Shown here piece after piece: positions 28,068 to 46,707 of a stretch of DNA of 64,000 nucleotides. Origin of the DNA: an uncultured cyanobacterium (lineage in GTDB: Bacteria; Cyanobacteriota; Cyanobacteriia; CAKZMO01); NCBI GenBank assembly GCA_963719515.1, contig CAVRCJ010000010.1:576001-640000 (forward strand). The letters are read 5' to 3'. The notes below the pieces were generated by a model. That model was not told the origin of the DNA and made no database searches. It saw nothing but the letters and a program-made list of their open reading frames with translations. Made by a program: the position numbers and the translations under genes. Position 1 is the first letter of the stretch. Each line of letters begins with the position of its first letter.

Positions 28068-29759
28068 ATGGCAAGAGACACGTCTAAAGATGGACTGAGC
28101 AACAAGCTTCTACTCTATATTTTGACTCACTTCAGGCCGATTTGGAGTCTTATTAAGAGTAGTAAATTTCTTAACCGAAAGGTCAACAAATTTTTAATCG
28201 ATAGCCTCTGCAACAAAGTTCCCAATCGGCCGCTTCCCTTCAGCATGATGACGCTGGACTCGTACAGCCCAGGTACAGATATTCCCAAAAAAGCAGACCT
28301 CTACACCTCTTGGGATTCTCTCACAGATCGTAGCTATACGGGCCGCCATCTTCCACCGGACCCCGACCTGAATCGAGAAGAAAATTTACCCGATCTGGCT
28401 GACTTAAAGGTCCTATTTCAGCAGCGAGACGGCCAAACCAGGTATTCGGAGAAATCGACGCTGCTGTTTCCCTATTTTGTACAGTGGTTCACCGACAGCT
28501 TTTTACGGATTGACCCTAAAAACCGGTATAAAAACACCTCCAATCACCATATCGATCTCTGCAACGTTTATGGCCTAACGCGGAAGCAAACCAATCTTCT
28601 GCGGGCCTTCCAGGGAGGAAAGCTGAAAACCCAGTGGCTCCAACGCTCAGACGGGATTGAAGAGGAGTACCCGCTGTTTTACTACGCCAACCCTGAGAGC
28701 GGAACGGTAGATCCTCAATTTGAAGGGCTCTACCAGGTTTTAGGAACGGAAGAGCGGCTGCGCCCCCAGCTCAAAGCAAAGCTATTTGCTATGGGGGTAG
28801 ACCGCGCCAACGTTCAGATTGGCTACGTCATGCTGACAACCCTCTGCGTGCGAGAGCACAATCGTCTCTGTATTGTTTTAGCAGAGCACTATCCCGATTG
28901 GGATGACGAGCGCCTCTTTCAGACGGCTCGCAACATCACGATTGTGATGCTGCTGAATATCATTATGGAGGAGTATATTTCCCACATCACCCCTTACCAT
29001 TTTACTTTTTTCGCCGATCCAGAAGGCTTTGCCAGTTCGAGCTGGAATAAACCTAACTGGATGGCGATTGAATTTAGCTTTGTCTATCGGTGGCATAGCG
29101 CAATTCCAAAGACGATTGTCTATCAAGGCCAAGACCTGGGTTTAGGCGAATCCCTATGGAACAATCAGCTAATCATCGATCAAGGATTAGGGGCTTTGAT
29201 GGAAGAAACCTGTTCTCAGCCGGGCGCTTTGATTGGGCTGTTTAATACGCCTGATTTTCCCATGTCAAAACCAGAGAGGCAGGAGAAATCGGCGTATCAG
29301 GAGAAATCAGCGAAGTGGGAACCGACGTTTATCGATGCCACTGAGCTGGCAACCGTTGCGCTAGGCCGAAAGATGCAGCTGGCGAGCTACAACGACTACC
29401 GGAAACTATGTGGCTTTCCCAAAGTCACGGATTTCGACCAAATTACTGGAGATGAGTATACCCAGCAAAAGCTCAAAGAAATTTATGGAGACGTGGACAA
29501 GATTGAGTTCTTCGTCGGTCTTTATGCCGAGGATGTGCGCGAAGGGTCTACTATTCCGGCTCTCGTAGCTCGTCTAATTGGCATTGATGCTTTCTCACAG
29601 GCGCTGACGAATCCTTTGCTAGCCCCCCAAATTTATAATCCACAAACGTTTTCTCCGGTAGGGTGGGAGATCATCCAGCAGACAAAAACGATGTCGGACT
29701 TGGTGAACCGCAATGTTCCGGCGAGCGATCGCCCCTTCAAAGTGACTTTCGACCTGTAG
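28068..29759 (+). CDS. Animal heme peroxidase / cyclooxygenase-like protein (probable fatty-acid dioxygenase)
   Basis: REHNRLC..L..HYPDWDDERLFQTAR, IEFSFVYRWH (COX Tyr385/His388 equivalent), SYNDYRK..GF and IEFFVGLYAE motifs. Confidence 0.9.
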   Translation: MARDTSKDGLSNKLLLYILTHFRPIWSLIKSSKFLNRKVNKFLIDSLCNKVPNRPLPFSMMTLDSYSPGTDIPKKADLYTSWDSLTDRSYTGRHLPPDPDLNREENLPDLADLKVLFQQRDGQTRYSEKSTLLFPYFVQWFTDSFLRIDPKNRYKNTSNHHIDLCNVYGLTRKQTNLLRAFQGGKLKTQWLQRSDGIEEEYPLFYYANPESGTVDPQFEGLYQVLGTEERLRPQLKAKLFAMGVDRANVQIGYVMLTTLCVREHNRLCIVLAEHYPDWDDERLFQTARNITIVMLLNIIMEEYISHITPYHFTFFADPEGFASSSWNKPNWMAIEFSFVYRWHSAIPKTIVYQGQDLGLGESLWNNQLIIDQGLGALMEETCSQPGALIGLFNTPDFPMSKPERQEKSAYQEKSAKWEPTFIDATELATVALGRKMQLASYNDYRKLCGFPKVTDFDQITGDEYTQQKLKEIYGDVDKIEFFVGLYAEDVREGSTIPALVARLIGIDAFSQALTNPLLAPQIYNPQTFSPVGWEIIQQTKTMSDLVNRNVPASDRPFKVTFDL

Positions 29760-32812: not shown

Positions 32813-33049
32813 AGCGCCTTGGTGAGGAGTCTCGATGCTTGTTAGTAGCTAATCTAACAAGTTACGCTCCCCTGACTACGCCCAAAACTGGCAATCTTTG
32901 CCTCACCAGAGAAAACAGCCGCCGCAGTTTCTCGAGGTCGGTCTGCTCTTTAACAAAGCTGAGCTGCCGTCCTCGCTAGCTCTCAACGCCCGCTGAGCGC
33001 TGTCCTTGCCGCATCCTCAAGCCAAGTCCTGACGATTTTGTCAGCCCTT

Positions 33050-33260
33050 TTGGTGGCCAGGTGGCTCTAGAATCAGCCTTGGAACAGCGATCGCCTGCTG
33101 AAGTCGACTTACTATTGCACTCTGATAGAGGGACACAGTACGCCAGCGGTGACTATCAAGCACCCACTGCGGCGCGCTAATATTGGCTGTAGTACGAGTC
33201 GCCGTGGCAATTACTGGGACAATGCGGTAGCCAAAAGCTTCTTTGGTACGCTCCAATCAG
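33050..33260 (+). pseudogene. IS3-family transposase (integrase core) remnant
   Basis: + strand reads ALESALEQRSPAEVDLLLHSDRGTQYASGDYQA, then a frameshift, then LRRANIGCSTSRRGNYWDNAVAKSFFGTL. These match the IS3 DDE motifs HSDRGSQY and SRRGNCWDNAVAESFF. Confidence 0.85.
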
Positions 33261-33329
33261 GACTCCCTTAAGTTTACGGCCGAGCATTTGTACTCATCAC
33301 TAAAGTGAGATGCACTTAAAATATACGTC

Positions 33330-36300
33330 TTACTCAGATGATGAGTAGGTTACGACTGTGTAAGTGGATTCCTTTACTTGATATAGATTGGGTGACGCGA
33401 ATTCAAGAAAATCCATGCCTTTGTCTAGCAGAACTTTACATATCGCTCCAGACTGGTAAGAAATCTCAAGTTCTCGTCGATGGGGAAAGTATGGGGAATG
33501 ACGTCGGAGATAAGGCCTCATTTTGAGCTGGCAGTTATCCAGATACTCTCCTAGTGCGGCTTCAACTCCAGAACGGCGTTGTCTGTTCCTATGTTTATGC
33601 TCATCGTAGGATTCCTGAATATGTACTTGTACTGGAAAATTAGAAGGTGCTCCTAGTTTTAGAAGTTGAGCCAACACTTTTGCTCCTACTTCGTCAAGAT
33701 AGCGATCGCTGTATTCTACACAGGCTATTTTTTCTTTGGCCAGGATTGCCTTAAATCCTAGGCGTCGTTGAAGGGTTTCTAGATCCATCTGTCCCCAATT
33801 AGGTTCGGGAAAAATAGCTTCGGTTTGAGGATCATCGAGTGCTTTAGTAGAGATCTGAGAGGCTTGGCACCTCAAGGCATTCAGATTCTGTTGAACAAAA
33901 TCTATTCCTCTTTGGCTGCGGGTTTGGAACCATTCGGTAGGTTCCCCGGTATCAGCTAGACGCATCTGGAGGGCTACGCGGTTGGAAGACTGACTACTAA
34001 TACAGAGAGTGGGCTGCATGTCAGATTGAATCTTACTGAGCATTATCAAGCCTTGGTCAATCCACTGCGATAGTCGCTTACGCAAAACCTGAATTTCGAC
34101 AGGCGACAGTTTTTCTGACTTGCTGCTTAGGCCTTGTTCCGGTAACCGGCTCACGATCAAATGGAGCTGTGTATTTTGCTTAGCCAGAGATCGCACCAAT
34201 TTGGTCAGCAATGCCAGATTGAACGGGGGCACAATCTCGGGTAGGTAAAGGATGGTTTCGGCACGGGCGTTGTCACAGTAGCCGGGTAGACGCTCGGCTA
34301 TAGCCGCTAAAGGCATTCGATTCGTATCCGGGGCAAAGGCTTGCAGATCAGGGTCAGGGTTGACCTGCGCTACTAGGGAGCGTAAATACTCAGCGACTGG
34401 GCGACGATCCAACTCATGGTGAAAGGCTTGGTTGGTATAGGTGCGCAGACAGTCATAACAACTGCTGCTGCATCCGCAAGACTCCACTAGCTGATAGGTC
34501 CGTTGAAGGATCGCCTCAAACTGAGCAGCAATTCTTTGGCTGTAGCCAGCTCCCCCTGGTACGTTATCGTAGATCACAATTTCAGCCGTGCCCGAACCCT
34601 CGCTATCGGGTGGCCTAAATAGGCCATCCAACTCGGCTCTGGGTACGTCGATGACCTGGGCTGCGGCGGCTAACAGGGCGTAGGTGAGCGATCGCCAGAA
34701 TCCTGTACCACCCGATGGGGAAGAGACGACGGATCCATCAATGTCTGACTGGATCGTGTCTCCTGCATTGAGGTGAATAACCTCTTCAAATAGGGGAGGC
34801 GGATTAGTTCTGCGAGTAAACCGGATCTTGAGTAGGTCACTGGAGAACTCATGCCCCAGGTGAACTCTTTGGTACCAGCCCACGCAGATTTTGCCAGTGA
34901 CAGGATGGGTGTGCCTCCCTTGTCCCTTACGGCGATTAACGTGGGCTCTCGGCAAGTCATCACTCAAATCTCTGCCACAACTTTCACAAATGGCAAAACC
35001 TAAGTTTCTAAAGCCCCGGCCCCCTTGGTTGGCCAGAAAGAATTCACCGCCCCGGCTCAATTTCAGTTCGTACAGCTCATGGGGAACGATGTCGATCTGT
35101 TCCCCTGCCTGGGCCAGAAAGACCTGGGACGTGGGCTGTCGTAGGGGCTTAAGGTAGGGAGTCACCCTTGGCGTCACGCTCCAATCGGTCGTAAACGACT
35201 TGGGTACTTTGTAAAACCGGCTGCCCTGTTCCATGCCATTGACGGGTTCCTGGCAGGTTGGGCAGGCGTCATGCTGAAACTCTTGCGCCTGAGATTCAAA
35301 GAAGTTGCAGTGGGGGCAAACCCAGTAGTACCGACTATTCAGGTTATCGGGCCGCAGAATGCCAACGCTGGTATGCACCCGGTCGTCTACCACAATATCT
35401 TGGCCAGGGGCGTATTCTGCCAGGGCCATACGCCGATCCCGTTGAAGACGATGTTTCCCTTGACTAGAGTAAGATTGTCCCCGGCTGTCTTGAGTCAGCA
35501 GTTGAACGACATCAATAGGAAAGCCATAAATGGGCAGAATACTGGCTTTAGCCAATTCTTCATGCAGTTGTCGCTTTTGAATTTTGCGAAGTTCATCTTC
35601 GATGCGATCGCGCTTCACTTCTAATGCTCGGCGTACCTTAGCTTTTGTTTCCCCAAGAATGTCGGCTTTAAGAGTAGTAAGCAGCTCCGCCAGCCCATTC
35701 CAATCCTTGAGCTGCTCAGCCTGAAAGTCATCCAGCTCCCTATGAAAATCATCCAAAGTCCCTTCAACCGTTTGTGAGCTATCCAATGACTGTAGCCATG
35801 GTGCCAAGAGCTGCCTGGCAGCTTGACTACTCAACCACTCCTGGAATTGCACAATCAGCGTACTACTTGAAAGTGTGGCAATTGCTTGAAAAGCATCATC
35901 GCTCTCTTCATCGGGTAGATCGAGGAAGGCGCTGATTTTGACATGCTCAGCCCCCGTTTCGCATTCAGATCTCAGAAACTTAGCCAAAAGTTCCGCCCGC
36001 AAATGGCGCTGCTGAATCTGAAAATTGTCAGTATCTAGCCGAGGTACCTGATTGCAACCATTGATCAACTCGGCGGGTTGGTCAAAGTAATAGCGATCGT
36101 GGGGGCGACGCTGACCATACATGAGGCTGATGGCCACCCCATCAGTACGGCGACCTGCCCGCCCAGCCCGCTGTTGATAGTTGCTCACATGGGGTGGAAA
36201 GTTACGCATCGCCACGGCCTGCAATTCGCCAATATCGACCCCCATCTCTAATGTAGTTGAACAACTAAGGAGATTGATTTTGCCCTGGCGAAAGCGGCTT

Positions 36301-39300
36301 TCCCGATGGGCTAGTTCCCCAGTGCCCAACTGGGCAGTATGCTCCTGGGCGCGGAGGGGAATAATCTCTCGGTTTTGAATGATATGGCGGTAGTGATGTT
36401 CCTCAAAGGTTGATGCCTTCGCTGAAGCGGTGCCCCAGGGCTGTAGTTGCCCACCGCAGCGGGACGCCAGGCAGTGATCTAACGCTAGCTCAGAAAATTG
36501 TCGAACCTCAGTCAGACCTGGTACATGAAAGATCTGTTGGCAGGAATCGCACTGATACCAGTCTGTCGCGGTCTGGTACAAGGAAAATAGTTCCCAATTC
36601 AGTTGCCGACCATCTCCAAACCCCTTGAGATATCCTTGGTGTTTTAACTCGTCAAATAACCACAGCAAGTTTTCCTCAGCGGGGTAATTGCCGTTGAAAA
36701 AGTTTAGGTAGAACGAAACAATCTGATTTTGAACCTTGGTTGGCTGCCCCTTATTAGTTTCTCGCCAGAGAAATCCAAGGGCATTAGGTGAATCGTTTGG
36801 ATCACGTCTGAGTTTGATGTATCGCTTTGAACGTCCCTGGGGACTCAGGCGAGCTGGCTGTCCACCTTCAACCCCTCCCGTCTCAGGAAAGTAACGAGAT
36901 GCCCCTTCCAGGTCAGTGGCTCCTAGTGATCGGATGATGTTGGTTAGACCAGCTAAGAAAATTTTGGCTTCAGCCTCGTCTATCTCAAACTTTCGTGCAG
37001 TATCCGCTACTAGGGTTGGATCATCGTTCCAGTCGATATAGCAGGCCAGTAATCCTAGAGCCTCGATGGAAAACCGCTTGGCGGAGGGCAACCCAAACTC
37101 ACGGAGCATGAGTTCTTTGGCCCGACTACGGGCTCGATTTTCGCAGTCTCGTTTATTTTGAGTTTCCTCATTGACAGGATCCTTGGCTACATAACTACGA
37201 TGGTGAAAGTCAGCCTGGCGATCGGGATGAGGAATTGATACGTTCAAAAAACGACGGATCAGCTCTTCCTGAACTTCTGTAACCGAAGCGCTCCCATTGT
37301 CCTGTACGTCCTCAAAGGCCTGCCACACCAATTGACGGTACAGGGTCTCGGTATGGGTTCGTTGAAAATCTGAAGCGAAGAAAGAGGCATCTTGACGACC
37401 ATCTGAGAAGGTTAAGATTTTGCGCTGGCTGAAGGTGCCGTTTGCTTCTCCGGTCTCTGGCAACAGCTCAAACAAACTGTCGAGCATCACCTCTAAGGGA
37501 GCATCGGTATAGGAGGCAAACCGCCCAATGGCTGACATTTGCGATCGCCCCGCACTACAGGCTGGACATTTAGTTAAGTAACCGCCTTGTAAATTTTTGG
37601 CCTTTGGGGGTATGTGCCAGTGCAATCTATATGCGTTTTCGGCCTGAGAGGATGCCTCCGGGATACTATTGCTGGCACCACTAAGCCACCCATCAGTATG
37701 GTTGCCCTTAATCAAGAAACTGCCGATTAGAGCATTTTCAGAATTTTCGCTGTCCTCCGTGACCTCTTCGCCCTCATCGTCAGTAACGCTGTCTAGCGCT
37801 CCTGAGCTCAAAACATAGATGCGATCACTATTCTCAGCCGCTTCTAAGGCACGGAGAACCGGCAACAGCTCTTTTTGGTGACCTTGAAAGGCCAGTGCAT
37901 AACCTTGTCCACATTTACGACAGCTAGAGAGCTCCAGCACGGGAGCCTGGCACGCATCACACTCAGCCTTGCTGCTGAGGAACAACTTGCCGTAGCGGCG
38001 AGGACGATCCTTAAACTGTTCATCGGTTACCGCACTAGGACAATCGGAATTAATACAGGCGTGCAATCCCTCTATGCTGCGAAATAGCAAGTGAAGCCTA
38101 ACAGGCAAGAGCGGTAAATCTTCCGGGTTCAATCTGGCCAGGGTGCCCAACTGAACTAAGTGGGCTAGAGCCTGTTCCGCCTTGGCCTCCTCCTGGGCAT
38201 CTAGGCTACCGTCCAAATGGGTAGGCAGTATCCAAAGGTGAGGAGATCGCGCTATCCAATTCCAGGGCTTTGGTCCCTGACTTAGTAAATTAATCAAGCG
38301 GTGGACTATCGGATGACCTTTCAGGGCAAACCAAAGGAACTGATGGGCATCACCCTCAGCATTCTGCTCAGCCTGTTGTAAGACATCGTAGGGCGCTAAG
38401 TAGCTCAGACAGTCTTTCCAGGTTTCTAGGGAGTCCTCAAGGGCCGGTAACTCCAGAGCGTATAGGAGTTCGTATAGATCTTCTTCGGCAAGCCCTTCTG
38501 GTAATGCGTAGGCATCACCCAGCCGTTCTGCAACGGTGACCCGGTCTCCCCAAATGACCTGCTCAAAAGGCTCGCCAAATAGTTCTTCGGCAAAGTCTGT
38601 GATTTGGTCAAAGGCTGCTGCGTCATTGCGATCGCCTAAGGTGGCACTGGTGGCGATGCCGCGGATTTGCCCCTTTACCTTCAATCCTATAGCGGCTTTA
38701 AACCGCTTGAGCAGCATGGAAACTTCAGTACCCGTGGATCCGCTATAGGTGTGAGCTTCGTCAACCACCAGCATTTTGAAGTTAGGCGATCGCTCAAAAA
38801 TCTGCTCGCGCTCCACCGGGCGAATCAGCATATGCTCCAACATGGAATAGTTGGTCACCAGAATCTGGGGTGGGTTTTCCCAAATTTCCTTGCGGGAGAT
38901 GGCTTGAATACGCTGGACTCGTTCGACTACGGCTGCGATCAGGTCATCCAAACGACCGCGCTTCATCGCCTCTCGCTGGCCCTCTGGCAGCAATTTCAGC
39001 AGTTCTTCTCGCTCGGTGGCCTGCAATTCTTCTTTCAGGGCAGATAATGCCTGGGCTGACTCAGTTTGTGTGCGGCTGGTGTAAAACCCAAACCGGATCA
39101 GCTCTTGGTCATCGCTCTGTTGAGAAAGCAGCTGCCGCAGGCGTTTCACTTGGTCATTAACTAGCGCATTCATAGGGTACAAGATGAGAGCTTGCACCCC
39201 TGGAGCATGTTCTTTCAGAAGGCGATCCAACATAGGAATCAGGAAACACTCTGTTTTCCCAGAGCCCGTGCCGGTGGCGACAACAATGTTTTGCTGTTCT

Positions 39301-39596
39301 CCTACCACCTGCTCAATGGCTTGCTCCTGATGCTGGTAGAGGGATCGAGTAGGGTTAAAAAGCTTACTTAGTTCGGGATGTAGTAACCCATCCTCTATTA
39401 AAGCTTGAATCGAACGGGTGGCTCGGTAGGGCTGTGCCCCTTCTAGGTAAGGCTGCTGGTAAACATTACCGGGTGCTTCAAGCAGCTTCCTGAACCCATG
39501 ACGAAGATGAGGATCGCGCAATGGGTAGGTGGTCAGCAAGTAGCGAATTAGATCCTCACGAGGTTGTCGCGCCGCCTCTACTGGATTCAGATACAT
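33330..39596 (-). CDS. Large DEAD/DEAH-box helicase with Zn ribbons, DUF1998 and C-terminal PLD-like domain (DruE-like defence helicase)
   Basis: Q motif LYQHQEQAI, Walker A TGTGSGKT, YPMNALVNDQ, DEAH, TSAT, STTLEMGVDIG, QRAGRAGRR, several CxxC pairs, and DUF1998 YDNVPGGAGYS...CGCSSSCYDCL. Confidence 0.93.
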   Translation of the reverse strand: MYLNPVEAARQPREDLIRYLLTTYPLRDPHLRHGFRKLLEAPGNVYQQPYLEGAQPYRATRSIQALIEDGLLHPELSKLFNPTRSLYQHQEQAIEQVVGEQQNIVVATGTGSGKTECFLIPMLDRLLKEHAPGVQALILYPMNALVNDQVKRLRQLLSQQSDDQELIRFGFYTSRTQTESAQALSALKEELQATEREELLKLLPEGQREAMKRGRLDDLIAAVVERVQRIQAISRKEIWENPPQILVTNYSMLEHMLIRPVEREQIFERSPNFKMLVVDEAHTYSGSTGTEVSMLLKRFKAAIGLKVKGQIRGIATSATLGDRNDAAAFDQITDFAEELFGEPFEQVIWGDRVTVAERLGDAYALPEGLAEEDLYELLYALELPALEDSLETWKDCLSYLAPYDVLQQAEQNAEGDAHQFLWFALKGHPIVHRLINLLSQGPKPWNWIARSPHLWILPTHLDGSLDAQEEAKAEQALAHLVQLGTLARLNPEDLPLLPVRLHLLFRSIEGLHACINSDCPSAVTDEQFKDRPRRYGKLFLSSKAECDACQAPVLELSSCRKCGQGYALAFQGHQKELLPVLRALEAAENSDRIYVLSSGALDSVTDDEGEEVTEDSENSENALIGSFLIKGNHTDGWLSGASNSIPEASSQAENAYRLHWHIPPKAKNLQGGYLTKCPACSAGRSQMSAIGRFASYTDAPLEVMLDSLFELLPETGEANGTFSQRKILTFSDGRQDASFFASDFQRTHTETLYRQLVWQAFEDVQDNGSASVTEVQEELIRRFLNVSIPHPDRQADFHHRSYVAKDPVNEETQNKRDCENRARSRAKELMLREFGLPSAKRFSIEALGLLACYIDWNDDPTLVADTARKFEIDEAEAKIFLAGLTNIIRSLGATDLEGASRYFPETGGVEGGQPARLSPQGRSKRYIKLRRDPNDSPNALGFLWRETNKGQPTKVQNQIVSFYLNFFNGNYPAEENLLWLFDELKHQGYLKGFGDGRQLNWELFSLYQTATDWYQCDSCQQIFHVPGLTEVRQFSELALDHCLASRCGGQLQPWGTASAKASTFEEHHYRHIIQNREIIPLRAQEHTAQLGTGELAHRESRFRQGKINLLSCSTTLEMGVDIGELQAVAMRNFPPHVSNYQQRAGRAGRRTDGVAISLMYGQRRPHDRYYFDQPAELINGCNQVPRLDTDNFQIQQRHLRAELLAKFLRSECETGAEHVKISAFLDLPDEESDDAFQAIATLSSSTLIVQFQEWLSSQAARQLLAPWLQSLDSSQTVEGTLDDFHRELDDFQAEQLKDWNGLAELLTTLKADILGETKAKVRRALEVKRDRIEDELRKIQKRQLHEELAKASILPIYGFPIDVVQLLTQDSRGQSYSSQGKHRLQRDRRMALAEYAPGQDIVVDDRVHTSVGILRPDNLNSRYYWVCPHCNFFESQAQEFQHDACPTCQEPVNGMEQGSRFYKVPKSFTTDWSVTPRVTPYLKPLRQPTSQVFLAQAGEQIDIVPHELYELKLSRGGEFFLANQGGRGFRNLGFAICESCGRDLSDDLPRAHVNRRKGQGRHTHPVTGKICVGWYQRVHLGHEFSSDLLKIRFTRRTNPPPLFEEVIHLNAGDTIQSDIDGSVVSSPSGGTGFWRSLTYALLAAAAQVIDVPRAELDGLFRPPDSEGSGTAEIVIYDNVPGGAGYSQRIAAQFEAILQRTYQLVESCGCSSSCYDCLRTYTNQAFHHELDRRPVAEYLRSLVAQVNPDPDLQAFAPDTNRMPLAAIAERLPGYCDNARAETILYLPEIVPPFNLALLTKLVRSLAKQNTQLHLIVSRLPEQGLSSKSEKLSPVEIQVLRKRLSQWIDQGLIMLSKIQSDMQPTLCISSQSSNRVALQMRLADTGEPTEWFQTRSQRGIDFVQQNLNALRCQASQISTKALDDPQTEAIFPEPNWGQMDLETLQRRLGFKAILAKEKIACVEYSDRYLDEVGAKVLAQLLKLGAPSNFPVQVHIQESYDEHKHRNRQRRSGVEAALGEYLDNCQLKMRPYLRRHSPYFPHRRELEISYQSGAICKVLLDKGMDFLEFASPNLYQVKESTYTVVTYSSSE

Positions 39597-39614
39597 GACT
39601 TCACTTCCTTATGA

Positions 39615-40550
39615 CTAAACCAGGACACAGCCCAACCGTTCGAGAGCAGCGTTTACCCGGGGTTGGTTTTGAGAATTAACTAAACGAAGTCGATTGTGGC
39701 CAGGCTCGGCTTCAGACAAGCGCCAAATCAGTTGGGCGTAGACCTTTGGTAAATAGGTATCGCTCAAATCCAACCGTCCAGACCTTGTATCTGAGGCGAT
39801 CCGAAGCGGTTGATTGACCTGCTGATCGAGCTTGAACATGGCCAGGTAAGCAGCATCTGGGGTGAGCTCAGAAAACTGTCCGTCCTGCAGCCACAAAAAC
39901 TCCCCCTCAGGGGTTCGTAGCAGGCTCAAACACGAAAGACTGGATAAGTGCTCTAGTCCCACAACAGGCTTCCATCGATTGTGTTGCGTTTCAGGGCAAG
40001 GTTGATACCCGTCGATGGAATCAAACCCTTGATAGGTAAAAAACGGATTCTCTAATCGTTCCTGCCCTCTCAAATTCCATGCAGCGGGCTTTTCTGGCAA
40101 AGGAAGTTGATCAATTGACTGATCGATGGTCAGGCACTTAATACCAGCTTTGGCGAGTTGTTCATAAATCTTTGAGAAGCTTTGCTTTTCGGGTCTCAGC
40201 AGGGTTCGAGAAACAGGCTGCCCAGTATTGAGCATCTGATGGGCCAATCTCAAGTAAGCCCGATCGCCCATGAATTTTAGACCAACTAAATTTTCTGGGC
40301 TCTCGACTACAACAGTGGGCTGAGCCATACAAACTCGTTTGCCAATGCCAAGCAAAACCTCTCCTTGAGCTTCTAAATTGTGCAATTCGTTATCAATTTT
40401 GGCTGGGGTTAGACCAGATTCAGCAAATAGGGGTGGCTCGCTATTTCTCAGGAGTCCCAACAGTTGAAACCGCGTCAATGCCTGCGGCAGATGCGGCCTA
40501 TTGAGAACCCGATGATGGCTCAAAATCTGGACAATCTGCTTGTTTAGCAT
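39615..40550 (-). CDS. Hypothetical protein (311 aa), middle gene of the putative defence operon
   Basis: Intact ORF, 9 bp after the upstream gene and 18 bp before the helicase ATG. No family recognised with confidence. Confidence 0.85.
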   Translation of the reverse strand: MLNKQIVQILSHHRVLNRPHLPQALTRFQLLGLLRNSEPPLFAESGLTPAKIDNELHNLEAQGEVLLGIGKRVCMAQPTVVVESPENLVGLKFMGDRAYLRLAHQMLNTGQPVSRTLLRPEKQSFSKIYEQLAKAGIKCLTIDQSIDQLPLPEKPAAWNLRGQERLENPFFTYQGFDSIDGYQPCPETQHNRWKPVVGLEHLSSLSCLSLLRTPEGEFLWLQDGQFSELTPDAAYLAMFKLDQQVNQPLRIASDTRSGRLDLSDTYLPKVYAQLIWRLSEAEPGHNRLRLVNSQNQPRVNAALERLGCVLV

Positions 40551-40559
40551 GGGTGATAG

Positions 40560-42944
40560 TTATCGAGGAATTAGATTAATTTTTTGGCGAAGTCTCTCTT
40601 CAAATGATAAGCACATACTTTTAAGAATAGGCTCATACTTTTGGTCGCCAAGCCTGACGATTACAAATTCCGGAAGAGACCTATCATAAGAAATCGAGAC
40701 CACTCCAGCTAATCCCTCTGCCTGAATTTGCGAGGTCATCAACTGCTGCAACTGCTTTGCCTTGCTTCTGCCTATCTCGATCCAGTAAACCAATGCCTTG
40801 GCAGGTGGATCATCTATAGGAGGTGAGAGAGATTTCACTGGAGGTGAGTTTTCAGGCTGGTCTAGAGACCAATGTTCCTTGTCAAGATTAAAAGACAACA
40901 ATTGGCAGTCCTTTCCCTCGCGAAGCCATGCAAGAGAGTAACGATCTGTCTCTGCCAGAACATCCCTGAATGAAGCTAGATTAATTACCACGTTACCCAA
41001 TCCATCGGCCTTCCTCAAAATGCTTATCTTATCTTCTCCATTGGTCAGCTCAAAGCTGGCTTCTTCTAGAGGCCAAAGTCCTTTGATGGTAAGTTCTTCG
41101 AGCCAAAAATCTTGGTTTTCTGGACAACCTACTGGAAAATCTTGAATCAAAATTTTCTGCCGATCGAGTATGTTGATGTCTTGCGTAGATGAGAAGTGGC
41201 TGAGCTGAAAATCTTCATGAATCTGAAATTTTTCTGCCCACTGCGTATTGCTATTCCATAGCTGAAGATTATAAGTGCCAGAGGTTTGAATCCATTGACG
41301 TAAATTTACCTCCTGCCAGCCTGTACTAGCCGCGATAGTAATTTGCTCATTGGGTTGGGTAATGGCTACACGTCTCGTCAGATCTTCTATTAGTATGTTT
41401 AGAGTCTCAGCAAGAATCTCTGGAGGATGCCAGAGAGTAGGGGTCCCGAGAAAACTGACGTTATGACTTTTTAGATGAATTCCTTGTAATTTTGGTTGCA
41501 GGCACCTATTTCTATCCCAAGATATTTTTTGAACAAGGCTACCCAACCGCAAGGTAATATCCGCACTGCTTCCCCTACGTTGTATAAGATGACCTCGCCA
41601 ATTATGGAGGCTACAAGGCACAAAACTGTCAATTAGTTCTATGTTTTCTCCATAGTATCTTTCTACTTCGTTAGGGGTAAATAGAATTATTTCGGAAGAA
41701 ATTTGAAGCTGTTCGGGCGATCTCAATTCTCCTGTATCAGCACCAAAGACTAAGCAAATCTGCTCAGATTTGATGCCAAGATGATGCCATTCGAGCAAGG
41801 CAGTGTTTTTGTGAGACCGTAACCGCCAAGTCCACTGTTCGGCAGATTCTGTAATAGTCTGACGTAGTTTAGGGATTTTAATAACACCAGAACGTATGTT
41901 AATCGCCCCTTCCCAGTTTCCTTCAGGAACCGTACAGTAATCTGCCTGTAGTTGCTTCCACTCCTTCCGATAAATTTCTTGTTCTGGAAGCACTAGCTGA
42001 ATGTCAAAAGAGTCAGTAATATCTAGCAGAAGAGATAAAGGTTTCCTGCGCTGACTAATAATAGATGAACTGGAGGTTTTCTTTCTACGAGGAGTCAGAA
42101 CGTTGATAAGACTATCCCAGCTACGGAGAAAGAACGTATTAGGGAGTGAATAGTTCTGAAGAACTCGTGTTCGCTGGATTTCATCACGAAGAATCTCTGG
42201 AGATTCGCCCCGACGCTCAAGTTCATGAGCAACGGTAGCCAAGCCTTGCAGCAAAGTGCCAGAAATTGGGTCGGCTTCTTCTTCATCGTCTTCAAGACAG
42301 CTGCTTCTCAGGAAAGTTAGCAAACGGCCCCTATTAGGAAACTTATGCTGACACACATCACAAAGCAACTGAGCTAAGTCAACTGGATCTGCGTGGGCTA
42401 TATCCCACCAGTCATAATTCAAAGCCTGAAGTAAGTCTGCGAAATGCCTCAAGCTCTGACAAGGAATTCCACTTTGCAACCAGAGGCTAGACACGTAACG
42501 ATTAGCTTTGCTAGAGCTAACTAAACCTAACTCTTCAATACCTTGCCAGGCAATTTGTTGTAGAGCATGAGTAGTTCCTTGGCCACAATGGATATCTAAC
42601 CGATCGCAAAGCCCCTGCCAATAACCATGCTTCCCGTCATCATAGTATGCATACTCTGAGAGAGCAAAGGTTACGATTTTAACCCAACTCGTCTCATGTT
42701 TTCCAAAATAGTTGCGTAGTCGAGTTAATGTTATAGACTCTAATCTTCTAAGATTTTCGCTGACAATATCTAATATCTCTTCTGTGGAATCTCTTTCAAT
42801 TTGAACACTGCCAAGAAAACGTTGGCCTGGCGGCAGCTCTTGGTAGTCCCAATGGTTTTGAATTTTCTCCCAAAATTGTTTGGCAATGGCCCTATCCGAG
42901 AGATTGATGAAAGGTCTTGCTGCGACAGAGGTAGAAAGAGTCAT
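40560..42944 (-). CDS. Hypothetical protein (794 aa), first gene of the putative defence operon; possibly DruH/DruF-like
   Basis: Long intact, visibly AT-rich ORF. Helical N-terminus with YWQGL...YVSSLWLQSGIP, and a Trp-rich, beta-strand-like C-terminal half. Confidence 0.85.
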   Translation of the reverse strand: MTLSTSVAARPFINLSDRAIAKQFWEKIQNHWDYQELPPGQRFLGSVQIERDSTEEILDIVSENLRRLESITLTRLRNYFGKHETSWVKIVTFALSEYAYYDDGKHGYWQGLCDRLDIHCGQGTTHALQQIAWQGIEELGLVSSSKANRYVSSLWLQSGIPCQSLRHFADLLQALNYDWWDIAHADPVDLAQLLCDVCQHKFPNRGRLLTFLRSSCLEDDEEEADPISGTLLQGLATVAHELERRGESPEILRDEIQRTRVLQNYSLPNTFFLRSWDSLINVLTPRRKKTSSSSIISQRRKPLSLLLDITDSFDIQLVLPEQEIYRKEWKQLQADYCTVPEGNWEGAINIRSGVIKIPKLRQTITESAEQWTWRLRSHKNTALLEWHHLGIKSEQICLVFGADTGELRSPEQLQISSEIILFTPNEVERYYGENIELIDSFVPCSLHNWRGHLIQRRGSSADITLRLGSLVQKISWDRNRCLQPKLQGIHLKSHNVSFLGTPTLWHPPEILAETLNILIEDLTRRVAITQPNEQITIAASTGWQEVNLRQWIQTSGTYNLQLWNSNTQWAEKFQIHEDFQLSHFSSTQDINILDRQKILIQDFPVGCPENQDFWLEELTIKGLWPLEEASFELTNGEDKISILRKADGLGNVVINLASFRDVLAETDRYSLAWLREGKDCQLLSFNLDKEHWSLDQPENSPPVKSLSPPIDDPPAKALVYWIEIGRSKAKQLQQLMTSQIQAEGLAGVVSISYDRSLPEFVIVRLGDQKYEPILKSMCLSFEERLRQKINLIPR

Positions 42945-43147
42945 GGTGGTAATCCAAAAAAAATGCTGGCCGGCGACTCCATAGCAAAACCAGAGGCTCT
43001 ATCGGTTGCTTCATTCTATTGTAATGATGCCCGGTGGCTTCAAAGAAATCGCAAGATTGAGATCTTCATGCTGAAAATATCTCAAGGCTTTATTAATCAA
43101 GATTTTTTGAAGCTTTGGTCAGCTTTCCAGTCAGCACTTCCTTTTTA

Positions 43148-44324
43148 TTAGCCAGGGTCGGAGTACAAATTTACTTGCTGTTGAACGGCCTGTCGGTGCT
43201 GTTCAACAAAGGACCCTGGCGATCGCACCTGCGCTTGGCCCATAAATCGATAGACCCAAAAGCTGAATCCTCTCAACGATCGGGACGGCAGCTTCACCAC
43301 ATAGTCCACATACTCAGTTTTGCGATTGAGATGGCCAGGGGGATGGGGCTCAATCTTCTAGGTGGGTGACGTAGAGGGCCTTGAGTGACAAACCCCATCA
43401 CCTTTGGGAAAACCTCAATCCTGACCTTAATCAGCTCCAGTTGACCTGATATTTCTTACTGTTGCGCCTCGGGATCGCCGAGAAATAGCCCCCACCCGTT
43501 TTCTAACAGCTCGTGTGCTAGCCTCAGGTTCCGACGCTGGATGGTCAGACTGCGGCCTCGGGGGTCAAGGATAGTGCATCGGTCTTCTAACCGGTCAATG
43601 CGCGAAATGGCTAGGTGGCCATTGTCACAGGTCTGATAAGTGCGATACCAGGCGATGTCATAGTAGAGCAACTGGAGAGGCCAGACATCAAAGGACTCAG
43701 CCCTATTTCAAACCAGGGGCTAGGCTTGCGGTGCAGCCGGATTCTCTGGCCTTTAGTGATGGCAGATTTAACGGTATCCAAGCAATCGAAGAGATTGCGA
43801 TCGCCAAAGGCCTCAGCAATCTTAACTGGGTCAGTTTCGACAATGGAGCGGTTAAGCTGTGCTCGCACCGGGTCAAACAACTGCTCTTTAGATTCAATTC
43901 CTTTCAGACGGCGGATAAGACGGTTGTAGAGTTCCTAAGGTTGCACGTCTCGCTGGTACTCGGCCTGAGAGTGGAGGACGTTGAGGGCAGCCGTTAGCTC
44001 TTGTTCGCCCATGACCCCAGTGCCTAGATAATAGCCCCAACAGTACATCTGTTTTACAAAAATGCCCATGGACCGCAGAAATGCTAGGTCTTTATAAATG
44101 CTGTGGCTGGAACACTTGATCATGCCACTTTCTTCCTGAGCAACCGCTAGCAGATAGGTTTGTACCTCTTCAAGGGCGTTGTGATGCTTATCGGGGTGTT
44201 CAGACTTCTCTAGGGGCTCTACACCAGGGTGTCGCAGCAGCGTGGCAATCAAGAGCATTAACCGTGCGAAGGCACCGTCATTAAAGTACTTAGACTGTGG
44301 CGACTGCGACTGTTTTGGGGGCAT
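43148..44324 (-). pseudogene. WYL-domain transcriptional regulator, frameshifted
   Basis: Consecutive fragments in different frames: FARLMLLIATLLRHPG...SIYKDLAFLR...GYYLGTG (wHTH); PVRAQLNRSIVETDP; VWPLQLLYYDIAWY...HLAISRIDRL...GWGLFLG (WYL); an internal TAA at 43456-43458; and VDYVVKLPSRSL...WVYRFMGQAQVRSP (WCX-like) ending in TAA at 43148. Confidence 0.85.
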
Positions 44325-44408
44325 GCTGTTGTCGTTTGCTCTAAAGCTAGTATTTGAACATTAGCCTAGTCAGGCTACATAACAACCAATCTTTAGAGTC
44401 CATGAGCA

Positions 44409-44446
44409 ATCTCTCTTCCCGTAAAATAGTTTGTGGGAAGAGAGAT
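44409..44446 (-). terminator. Stem-loop downstream of the YHS gene
   Basis: 12-bp stem ATCTCTCTTCCC / GGGAAGAGAGAT with a 14-nt loop, 23 bp past the YHS stop. The U-tract is weak. Confidence 0.55.
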
Positions 44447-44469
44447 CGCCAGCCCCTTACTTCCAAAAC

Positions 44470-44982
44470 CTACTGCTCCAAAATTCCAGGCCACTTCTCA
44501 TTAGCCAGCGAAATGAACCCCGGAATATCCTTCTCCCAACGCGCCTGAATGTCACTACTAAAATTCAGATACAGCTTCCCATCCACAATCGACCAGGCCG
44601 TCGGGTCAATCGGAGCCAAGTTATCTTGGCTAATGGCCCAGGCACAATAGCCGCCATACTGAGGCGCATACTGCTCCGGGTTAGCTGCAAACAAATCTTT
44701 ATTCTCAGCGCTAGAGAACTGCCAGGTTGCCCCCTTCCAGTCATACTCGTGGGCGCTGCTGCCGAGAACAGACTGCCCTTGAGTGAAGTAGGCCACGGGG
44801 TCAGCCCCTTTAATCGCAATGCCGTCTTCAGCGTAGGTTTCCGCCTTCGCGCCAGCCGTGCTTTGCGCCGCGATCGCCAGCGGGTTGAAGCTGCCGCCGG
44901 TGACAGAGCTGTAGGTGGCGGTGACTGCCCCCAAGCCCACGACTGAGGCAGCGGCAATAGCGATCCATTTGCGATTGGTCAT
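44470..44982 (-). CDS. Secreted YHS-domain protein
   Basis: Signal peptide (MTNRKWIAIAAASVVGLG), AIKGADPVAYF, ATWQFSSAENKDLFAANPEQYAPQYGGYCAWA and IVDGKLYLN. Start taken at the ATG at 44982. Confidence 0.9.
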   Translation of the reverse strand: MTNRKWIAIAAASVVGLGAVTATYSSVTGGSFNPLAIAAQSTAGAKAETYAEDGIAIKGADPVAYFTQGQSVLGSSAHEYDWKGATWQFSSAENKDLFAANPEQYAPQYGGYCAWAISQDNLAPIDPTAWSIVDGKLYLNFSSDIQARWEKDIPGFISLANEKWPGILEQ

Positions 44983-45108
44983 GAGGGTCGTCCTTCCGCG
45001 GAGTAGGTTGTCGTTCTGGTAACTTTCGCTATAGTCGCCTTCCGAGCTGAACCTGCTCTGATCCACAGCTGAGAGCAAAATAAATTTGCTGCAGCGGCCT
45101 TGATCGAT

Positions 45109-46707
45109 CTACTGGGGTTGGGGCCGTAAAAACGTCGGCAGGTCGATAATACGACGGCCCTCTTGAAGGGGTTTTTGGCGATCGCGTTCTGGCTCTGAGA
45201 CGAGCTGAGGAGACGGCCAGCCCGCCTGCGGTGAGCTGAGCGGAGTCTCTTGAGGGGTTAGCGGCGCGGGCTGGCCTGCAGCGTCCTCCGCTGCTGGTTC
45301 GGTAAAGGACGCTCGCGCTGGGCTAGAAGGCGGCTCCGGCAAAGTGGGCGCCGAGGCTGTAGCGTTTGCCTGAGGCAGCTTTGGGCCTTGAGCGCTGGCA
45401 GCGTCAGCCTCTGAGGGCCGCAGCTGACTGGCGATCGCCTTTGCCCCCTGAATTACGACGTCGAAGATTGTGTCTACTCCCTCGGCGGGGCTGCGAAGCT
45501 TTGCGGCCTTCGGAGAGAGAGAACTGTTGATTGGCGGTGGGGTGAATGGCTGAGAGGCCTCGGCAGCGGGGGAAGTCGCCTGAGTCGGGGTATCTAGAGC
45601 GCCGACCCTCTGGACTAAGTCTGACCAAAAAGCATCTTCGGCTGACGCGGCAGGGGACTGGGCGCTCTTGGCGTTGGCGTTAAGGGGACTCTCCTCAGCT
45701 GCTGGTGCTGACATCTGAGCTGAAGCATAGATTGAGGCACTAGGCGGGGGATTGGGAACGGGGGCGCTGCTGACAATAGCGTCGGGGGTCGCCGGACTTT
45801 CCTGAGGCTGATGAGCCAGGGTAAACAGCGTGGTTTTGAACCGAGACATTTGGGGAACCTGGGGCTCTGGCTTGAGCGGCTTGATCGCCCCCATAGGCAT
45901 GCCAACGGCGCTAACGGAGGGTTGGGCGGAATTGGCCCGGTGGGCCGACGAACGCGCCTGGGCCGACCAGGTCGGGATGCCGCCTGTCTTGGGCAAAAGC
46001 GGCGAAACTAAAGCGGTGAGGTCATCTTCTAAGGTTGACGCGGCCTGAGCGCTACTGGCCTGAGCGCTACTGGCCTGAGCGCTACTGGCTTCAATGACCT
46101 CAGGCGTCACGTAACTCGGCGGCGGCACCTCCAGACATTTGTCTAGGGCCGTCTTAAACTGAAGCGTATAGCGCTGCTGCCGCTGCAGTCGCTGCTGCAG
46201 CTCCTCGCAGCGTAGCTCAAGATGCTCGATACGGTTCGATTGAGTCCGACAGCGCTTTTGAAAGGCCTGACTGTCTTGCTCTAGCTGCAGCAGCTGCACC
46301 CGGTCAGAATTAACCTGCTGAGCCAGACTCTCGATGCGGATGGCCTGCCGCTGGTTTGCCTGTTGGGCGAACTCTAGCTGATTGAGCAGGTAGGCCACCT
46401 GGGCCTCTGCTGGCGCGCCGTTGGGCAAGGATATTGGCGATGGGGCTTGAGCTTGCCCTGCAGCTAGTTCCTCTTTGAGGTCTTCCACCTGGCTCGAGAG
46501 AAGATGGTTTTGCTGGGTCAGATCCTGCACCAGGTTAATTAATGCGTCTGTTCCTTGCCCTCCCGTTTCTGCATTCTGACTGTTGCCACCATCCCCCTCT
46601 GAGCCCTGACGGCCCTTCCGGTACTGACTTTGCCGTTTGCTGGCACCAGCGCTGATTGCGTTTGGGAAATTAACGCGATCGCCTGAGGGGGGGGTGGATT
46701 CGTTCAT
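45109..46707 (-). CDS. Hypothetical protein: coiled-coil N-half, Pro/Ser/Ala-rich C-half
   Basis: LQQRLQRQQRYTLQFKTALDKCLE coiled-coil block and an IIDLPTF C-terminal motif; 532-aa intact ORF. Confidence 0.8.
   Translation of the reverse strand: MNESTPPSGDRVNFPNAISAGASKRQSQYRKGRQGSEGDGGNSQNAETGGQGTDALINLVQDLTQQNHLLSSQVEDLKEELAAGQAQAPSPISLPNGAPAEAQVAYLLNQLEFAQQANQRQAIRIESLAQQVNSDRVQLLQLEQDSQAFQKRCRTQSNRIEHLELRCEELQQRLQRQQRYTLQFKTALDKCLEVPPPSYVTPEVIEASSAQASSAQASSAQAASTLEDDLTALVSPLLPKTGGIPTWSAQARSSAHRANSAQPSVSAVGMPMGAIKPLKPEPQVPQMSRFKTTLFTLAHQPQESPATPDAIVSSAPVPNPPPSASIYASAQMSAPAAEESPLNANAKSAQSPAASAEDAFWSDLVQRVGALDTPTQATSPAAEASQPFTPPPINSSLSPKAAKLRSPAEGVDTIFDVVIQGAKAIASQLRPSEADAASAQGPKLPQANATASAPTLPEPPSSPARASFTEPAAEDAAGQPAPLTPQETPLSSPQAGWPSPQLVSEPERDRQKPLQEGRRIIDLPTFLRPQPQ
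46042..46089. repeat. 15-bp tandem repeat x3 (encodes SSAQA)
   Basis: GGCCTGAGCGCTACT repeated exactly three times. Confidence 0.95.

Follow-up and report, generated by a model that had tools for sequence, protein, structure and literature searches.

We analyzed a 64,000-nucleotide window of DNA from an uncultured cyanobacterium (GenBank assembly GCA_963719515.1, contig CAVRCJ010000010.1, positions 576,001 to 640,000) that carries a candidate anti-phage cassette related to Druantia. The cassette lies on the minus strand, where the remnant of a WYL-domain regulator gene is followed by genes for proteins of 794, 311 and 2088 amino acids (aa; Table 1). The two gaps between the three genes measure 9 and 18 bp. 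Our open reading frame (ORF) scan recovered the arrangement described in the original prediction, which had been made from the sequence alone, and, as had also been claimed, the ORF lists of the window placed neither a methyltransferase nor another helicase beside the cassette. The predicted drop in base composition was confirmed. GC content was 0.51, 0.49 and 0.43 in the three genes compared to 0.565 and 0.611 in the flanks, and GC at third codon positions was 0.38-0.51 compared to 0.63-0.78 in six flanking genes.

In two genomes of the same genus (G403 and G402; loci L076 and L077), the genes that border this region, for an S9 peptidase and for a homologue of the 532-aa protein, lie ~100 and 40 bp apart. 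Because these flanking genes adjoin there, the ~12.2 kb between them in the window, including a YHS-domain gene, represents an insertion, as judged from these two genomes; the locus from a third was too short to tell. A DNA search of 20 relatives left the cassette unmatched except for one 53-bp piece in G407. In the helicase gene, we observed six HIP1 sites, compared to 0.10 expected by composition and 9.2 at the genome rate. Its two partner genes had no site, compared to 4.9 expected at that rate (P = 0.008). The long cyanobacterial residence that had been argued from HIP1 sites is therefore supported for the helicase and not for its partners.

Table 1. Coordinates of the cassette and related features, in window positions unless a locus is named.
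Feature	Position	Strand	Basis
WYL-domain regulator pseudogene	43118..44324	-	PADLOC WYL/Csx1 model on pieces; alignment to the L002 protein
Gene for the 794-aa protein, apparently a shortened DruH-like protein	40560..42944	-	ORF scan, AF2 model, profiles
C-terminal NusG/Spt5 NGN-like domain of the 794-aa protein	40563..40799	-	~aa 716-794
Gene for the 311-aa protein, putatively DruD/DruL-like	39615..40550	-	ORF scan, AF2 model, profiles
DruE helicase gene, 2088 aa	33330..39596	-	PADLOC, Pfam, PDB match
~12.2-kb insertion, interval between the S9 peptidase gene and the 532-aa gene	32870..45110	no strand	Comparison with G403 and G402
Coiled-coil homologues of the 794-aa protein	L012 6060-10001; L013 4754-9061; L058 3516-6083; P0072		

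We surveyed conservation at 51 cyanobacterial loci from GTDB. The three-gene order was kept at 46 of them, with the large partner upstream of the 311-aa gene at 50 and the helicase downstream at 47. One of the five incomplete loci sits at a contig edge, two have less than 2 kb of sequence downstream, and two have room without a helicase. An SNF2-like neighbor was present at 4/51 loci only, and a crude motif scan of neighbors of at least 150 aa at the 51 loci found no methylase motif. Full-length matches to the 311-aa protein occurred in 5 of 401 genomes of the phylum, along with one fragment, and the full-length helicase was present on six cyanobacterial plasmids. Two genes encoding ~390-406 aa recur 3' of the helicase, at 8/51 and 7/51 loci, mostly in Nostocales (L015 18128-19300; L021 17828-19048).

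The 2088-aa protein is a large YprA/MrfA-family SF2 helicase with MZB/DUF1998, which is the general definition of a Druantia helicase (DruE). As originally predicted, its helicase motifs and DUF1998 Cys cluster are intact: Walker A (GTGSGKT) is at residue 109, DEAH at 279, SAT at 317 and motif VI (QRAGRAGR) at 1142, and the Cys cluster lies at 1707 in the MZB zinc domain (aa 1637-1717). Pfam DEAD, Helicase_C and MZB all scored above cut-off. The protein matched all four DruE classes in PADLOC (DruE1, 770 bits; DruE3, 740; DruE2, 557; DruE4, 520). Genuine class members reach 1900-2700 bits on their own DruE class, including 2068 for type I, more than 1900 on DruE2 for type II/IV and 1916 on DruE4 for a type IV member. 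Because its scores fall far below these values, the helicase belongs to none of the clades modelled by PADLOC. We built two FastTree trees of DruE with 23 sequences each, the second of which swapped five rows for five new ones; neither contained a verified III-B reference. In both trees, the cyanobacterial helicases formed their own clade (support 1.0), apart from the type III-A, type I and type II/IV clades.

The closest PDB relative of the helicase was 9tu7, a 2108-aa chain (E = 1e-92), with the alignment reaching residue 2064. Its C-terminal region (~aa 1750-2088) is tandem PLD/MITD1-like. A profile of the last 335 aa matched type III DruE tails (probability 97.3, E = 1.6e-11), compared to E = 0.38 for type I tails. 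We located the tail motifs D1964-R1965-Y1966, H2039-x-R2041 and D2062. Their spacing fits the reported PLD site of Pseudomonas aeruginosa DruE (D1917/R1918/Y1919, H1999/R2001, S2022), as mapped by motif with no alignment to that sequence. A two-PLD tail is described as typical of type III-A and occasional in III-B (PMC12458937). The same source tabulates the Scytonema gene WA1_16685 as 'Druantia type III-B-like' (Table S1), and WA1_16685 adjoins WA1_16690, a homologue of the 311-aa protein. The cyanobacterial helicase clade is thus probably already catalogued under III-B. The suggestion of a new cyanobacterial subtype stands insofar as no named subtype is matched completely, and does not stand insofar as this helicase clade probably already carries the label 'III-B-like'.

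The AlphaFold2 (AF2) model of the 794-aa protein (predicted local distance difference test (pLDDT) 83.5) comprises a helical N-terminal domain (~aa 15-290), immunoglobulin (Ig)-like beta domains (~aa 300-686), a linker and an NGN-like alpha/beta tail. We found 126 homologues, and every one with an organism name was cyanobacterial. The DruH3 model matched 3 of 50 homologues (best E = 7e-5); the DruF and DruG models matched 0/50. A profile of the N-terminal domain aligned with six DruH N-termini (E = 0.0012; score 31.8 compared to a shuffled maximum of 17.0), and the invariant residues E97, W109, G135 and L154-x-x-Q-S-G-x-P paired with invariant DruH residues. In the ESM Atlas, the top cluster (0.91) carried YjiT_N on 11% of its members. 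On three independent weak signals, the 794-aa protein looks like a shortened DruH-like protein. Profile comparison found no match to the C-terminal domain of DruH, nor to DruB, DruC, the 955-aa protein of N. watsonii or the 1069-aa partner of a Clostridium butyricum helicase. PDB sequence searches with the 794- and 311-aa profiles gave no significant match, and Foldseek on the 794-aa model returned generic Ig folds only, from structures that included no DruH.

Long coiled coils are present at the N-terminus of many homologues of the 794-aa protein, in some cases preceded by a hydrophobic segment (Table 1). The annotations 'chromosome segregation ATPase' and 'ParA' arise from these coiled coils. 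Membrane anchoring of such homologues is possible.

The tail of the 794-aa protein is NGN-like in fold and sequence pattern. A hidden Markov model built from 23 tails found it near the C-terminus in 98/126 homologues, a count that is partly circular because the model was built with members of the same set. Many of the 28 homologues without it are ~690 aa long and end after the last Ig domain. TIGR00922 (nusG) matched 3 of 50 homologues, the best (E = 1e-17) being one with a KOW domain. In P0008, a homologue of 890 aa, the NGN-like domain is followed by a near-canonical KOW that is 50% identical to that of the host NusG. A better-conserved subgroup of tails matched the host NGN (E = 2.5e-4; shuffles, probability at most 1.6), and the subgroup containing the window's tail matched this better-conserved subgroup (probability 85, E = 6e-6) but not host NusG itself (E = 0.69). 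The window's tail is therefore linked to host NusG by sequence in two steps. In a VIA-align structural comparison, ranks 2-4 were Spt5/NusG NGN domains (Z = 9.6, 9.3 and 9.0; root-mean-square deviation 2.1-2.2 over 69-72 residues), tied with other ferredoxin-like folds; NusG/Spt5 accounted for 10 of 50 rows. PDB searches with tail alignments reached NusG at E = 0.52 only, and the window's subgroup retrieved helical chance matches. Unlike the NGN of NusG/Spt5, which it resembles in fold and sequence pattern, the tail is divergent, is fused to a defence protein and is dispensed with by the 28 homologues above. It may tether the complex to RNA polymerase through a putative contact with the clamp helices, to which the NGN domain of NusG/Spt5 binds.

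The AF2 model of the 311-aa protein (pLDDT 91) has an N-terminal winged helix (aa 1-77) with structural matches of Z up to 9.9. Its profile aligned colinearly over the full length of P. putida DruD (probability 68, E = 4.8e-5; shuffles at most 0.4) and did not match N. watsonii DruD alone. A wider profile matched eight hits of the DruL model over 241 columns (probability 70, E = 4.1e-5; shuffles at most 0.4). The DruD1 model weakly matched 9/55 homologues, and one homologue matched DruL4 (E = 0.0014). The source genome had no match to DruL4; it also had none in searches for the DruD1 and DruH3 families, but the controls were equally silent. In the ESM Atlas, the one lead was to Helicase_C_3 (0.82-0.83), and Foldseek on the model gave nothing with E < 0.001. 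A search of 1.84 billion representatives returned 46 matches of at most 401 aa, and no fusion was therefore apparent among these 46. In scans of viral contigs, P. putida DruD and the DruH alignment found no match, and N. watsonii DruD matched two loci. These profile comparisons suggest a distant relationship of this winged-helix protein to DruD of type I and DruL of type IV. The original prediction had treated both partners as unknown proteins; Druantia relatives are detectable for each.

The kinship with DruD raises the question of a reduced type I system in which DruA was lost, DruB and DruC were replaced and DruD was kept. DruE1 gave the top PADLOC score, a DruD-like gene stands directly upstream of druE as in type I, where N. 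watsonii has the order DruA, 955-aa gene, DruD, DruE, and the DruD1 matches among homologues point the same way. However, a genuine type I DruE scores 2068 bits, and the helicase of the window falls outside the type I clade in both trees with a PLD-like tail in place of the inactive Vsr tail of type I. DruA, DruB and DruC were absent from the 51 loci and the source genome (tblastn, six reference proteins, E 1e-3), as was any match to the 955-aa gene. We consider this origin hardly probable. Type I-like loci with one ~955-aa gene lacking a PADLOC match in place of DruB and DruC were observed elsewhere (L061 2008-12757, L072 and L073).

The kinship with DruL bears on type IV, which consists of DruF, DruL and DruE, three genes without a methylase (PMC8565338). 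A Druantia-related three-gene unit that completely matches no subtype had been predicted and was found; its layout, three genes and no methylase, had been taken as novel, although type IV had already been described with it. Cyanobacteria also contain separate type IV loci (DruF4-DruL4-DruE4), whose genes follow the order of the cassette. The cassette could accordingly be a type IV system that has diverged too far for the PADLOC models to detect, or a type IV pair of accessory genes that acquired a type III-like helicase. Gene order and sizes agree with cyanobacterial examples, in which proteins of ~680 aa and 310-350 aa precede the helicase (685/358/1911 aa in L090; 677/336/1902 aa in L091), and the small protein is distantly homologous, through the 241-column DruL alignment and the DruL4 match of one homologue. 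The helicase, however, lies outside the well-supported helicase clade of L089-L093, its PLD tail has no match in the tails of that clade, and its DruE4 score is 520 bits against 1916. The profile of the 794-aa protein against two DruF4 proteins did no better than shuffles (E = 0.14, shallow template), and no NGN-like tail was seen in those two proteins. None of the 50 homologues matched DruF, whereas three matched DruH, and DruL4 found nothing in the source genome. A type IV origin is therefore unlikely. In two type IV-like loci, L089 and L092 (G149 and G253), the DruF-like and DruL-like genes are separated by an additional gene for a coiled-coil protein of ~630 aa, and another ORF lies 3' of the helicase; this layout is perhaps an undescribed type II/IV variant.

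The proposal of a methylase-less type II system found no support. The helicase is outside the type II/IV clade, its DruE2 score is 557 bits, and none of 50 homologues matched DruF or DruG. The DruM and DruG that define type II are both missing, with no methylase in the window and no DruG match among the homologues. The operon also lacks the BrxHII/SNF2 helicase and PglX-like methylase that characterize ARMADA/DISARM.

We predicted the structure of the core of the 794-aa protein in complex with the 311-aa protein. The complex scored 0.74, compared to 0.00 for the best of three controls; the mark used for this score was reached by 116/157 solved complexes and 2/215 mismatched pairs. Contact agreement between runs was at least 88%, and partner pLDDT was at least 81. 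In the predicted interface, the last Ig domains of the 794-aa protein face the winged-helix half of the 311-aa protein, with residues 578-586 and 622-627 of the former and 11-25, 66-77 and 97-102 of the latter involved. This model predicts that the two proteins bind each other.

Compared to type III and III-B, the cassette shares a DruE with MZB and a tandem PLD-like tail, the lack of a methylase, and an upstream partner that combines a helical N-terminal domain with Ig-like domains. It differs in that the core of the DruH-like protein stops after ~690 aa, without the C-terminal helical domain that in type III is reported to bind the DruE stalk, and in that this protein carries the NGN-like tail and a DruD/DruL-like protein is encoded by a gene of its own downstream. 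III-B is described with DruH as the sole gene besides DruE (PMC12458937). Because a separate 311-aa gene intervenes at 46/51 loci, the cassette falls outside the two-gene definition of type III. A locus on a Clostridium butyricum plasmid (L060 4783-12668), with a 1559-aa DruE lacking a nuclease tail and a 1069-aa partner without a PADLOC match, is likely III-B. Overall, the cassette probably represents a new variant of Druantia type III-B, found in cyanobacteria and resembling type IV in its layout. We found neither this layout, nor the DruD-DruL homology, nor a NusG-fused defence protein or NusG-like domain on a Druantia partner in the literature searched, outside of which lay most subscription papers and the bioRxiv supplements.

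WYL proteins of the BrxR/CapW type are regulators of defence operons. A WYL homologue lay near the cassette at 19/51 loci, co-directional and directly upstream at 2 and divergent at 17, which resembles the placement of such regulators. In contrast to them, the WYL gene of this genome is a pseudogene, as the original prediction had it. Interrupted by two frameshifts and in-frame stop codons, the remnant aligned in three frames (87%, 82% and 70% identity) with the intact 403-aa WYL protein of Leptolyngbya sp. FACHB-60 (L002), so the pseudogene extends well beyond its 129-aa ORF. The L002 protein scored 142 bits on the same PADLOC WYL/Csx1 model that the remnant pieces matched. Because the regulator is broken, the copy in this genome may be constitutively expressed or decaying.

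The broken regulator, together with the split genes at many homologous loci and the repair role of YprA/MrfA helicases, leads to another reading: a mobile MrfA-like module for DNA repair or plasmid maintenance, or a decaying cassette without a current defence role in this strain. Against this, the helicase lies in a long defence branch and all three ORFs are intact here, and a patchy distribution, presence on plasmids and linkage to WYL genes are as expected of defence cargo. We regard a repair module or decayed cassette as very unlikely.

Taken together, the cassette is probably a cyanobacterial variant of III-B anti-phage defence in which a predicted heterodimer of the 794- and 311-aa proteins would stand in for DruH and load DruE. 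Gene content, gene order, the insertion, the domain anatomy and the helicase motifs are observed, and the heterodimer is modelled; we infer the steps beyond these. A role in anti-phage defence is likely by analogy. The heterodimer would do the work of DruH, binding or trimming single-stranded DNA (ssDNA) ends of phage replication or recombination intermediates, and the helical N-terminal domain of the 794-aa protein would sense ssDNA or forks. Because the C-terminal domain of DruH is missing, the 311-aa subunit probably engages the DruE stalk and thereby recruits the helicase. DruE would then be loaded on exposed single-stranded or forked phage DNA and unwind it 3'-to-5', and its PLD-like tail might cut or degrade that DNA. 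Phage would be cleared directly and non-abortively, without cell death. The NGN-like tail would be an accessory that some lineages have lost; it may recruit the complex to transcription bubbles. The steps are modelled on reports for type III, which disagree on nuclease roles, the trigger of DruE, the role of DruH and direct DruE-DruH binding (10.64898/2026.05.13.724313, 10.64898/2026.05.12.724681, 10.64898/2026.05.12.722862, 10.64898/2026.05.13.724758).

Several observations weigh against the III-B reading. Neither partner protein of the window matched any PADLOC, Pfam or NCBIfam model, and the links to DruH and to DruD/DruL are weak (pairwise E = 1e-3 to 5e-5, hhalign probability 20-70). With the wider 30-sequence profile of the 311-aa protein, the DruD match fell to probability 29 (E = 6e-4). 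The 311-aa profile also had no match to five or six DruH sequences, the DruH C-terminus included. The deep nodes of the DruE trees are poorly supported (0.07-0.27), and the III-B label depends on one adjacent pair of locus tags in a source available in part (WA1_16685/WA1_16690). The helicase is a single ORF of more than 2000 aa at just 28/51 loci, being split, contig-cut or missing at the others. D1740, an Asp reported as required for the nuclease activity of P. aeruginosa DruE, had no conserved counterpart in our alignment of cyanobacterial DruE homologues, so DNA cutting by the PLD tail is only a possibility. The published groups also differ on which subunit cuts DNA.

We also considered that the 794- and 311-aa proteins might literally be a split DruH (794 + 311 = 1105 aa). 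This was rejected because the 311-aa profile lacks a DruH match, and only functional equivalence to DruH was kept.

Other features of the region were also recorded. The YHS-domain gene at 44470-45078 lies inside the insertion, and G402 and G403 have YHS homologues elsewhere. An intergenic stretch of ~190 bp 3' of the helicase (33063-33256) matched other contigs of G404 and G402, both of the same genus, at 81-84% identity and away from the S9 peptidase site; the source genome has one copy. It is possibly a mobile-element remnant or a small RNA. A gene of the animal-haem-peroxidase family at 28068-29759 (Pfam PF03098, E = 3e-49) has a GC content of 0.48-0.50 and is perhaps a separate acquisition.

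A bolder proposal joins two ideas: that an NGN acquired from NusG docks the DruH-like sensor on elongating RNA polymerase, so that the ssDNA of a transcription bubble on phage DNA triggers DruE loading, and that DruD, DruL and the 311-aa protein form one ancestral winged-helix adaptor family. As a pair, we think these rather doubtful. If they hold, a DruD/DruL/311-aa adaptor family pairs with a DruH/DruF-like Ig scaffold, and the cyanobacterial clade is a bridge between Druantia types. DruD and DruL are suggested to be homologues able to replace the C-terminal domain of DruH, which would bring the accessory genes of types I, III and IV under one scheme. The cassette offers a testable composition for the little-studied III-B branch in cyanobacteria, with both partner genes outside current PADLOC models. 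Its separable subunits and optional NusG-like tail make the dispute over the trigger and the role of DruH directly testable, including the steering of a defence helicase by RNA polymerase.

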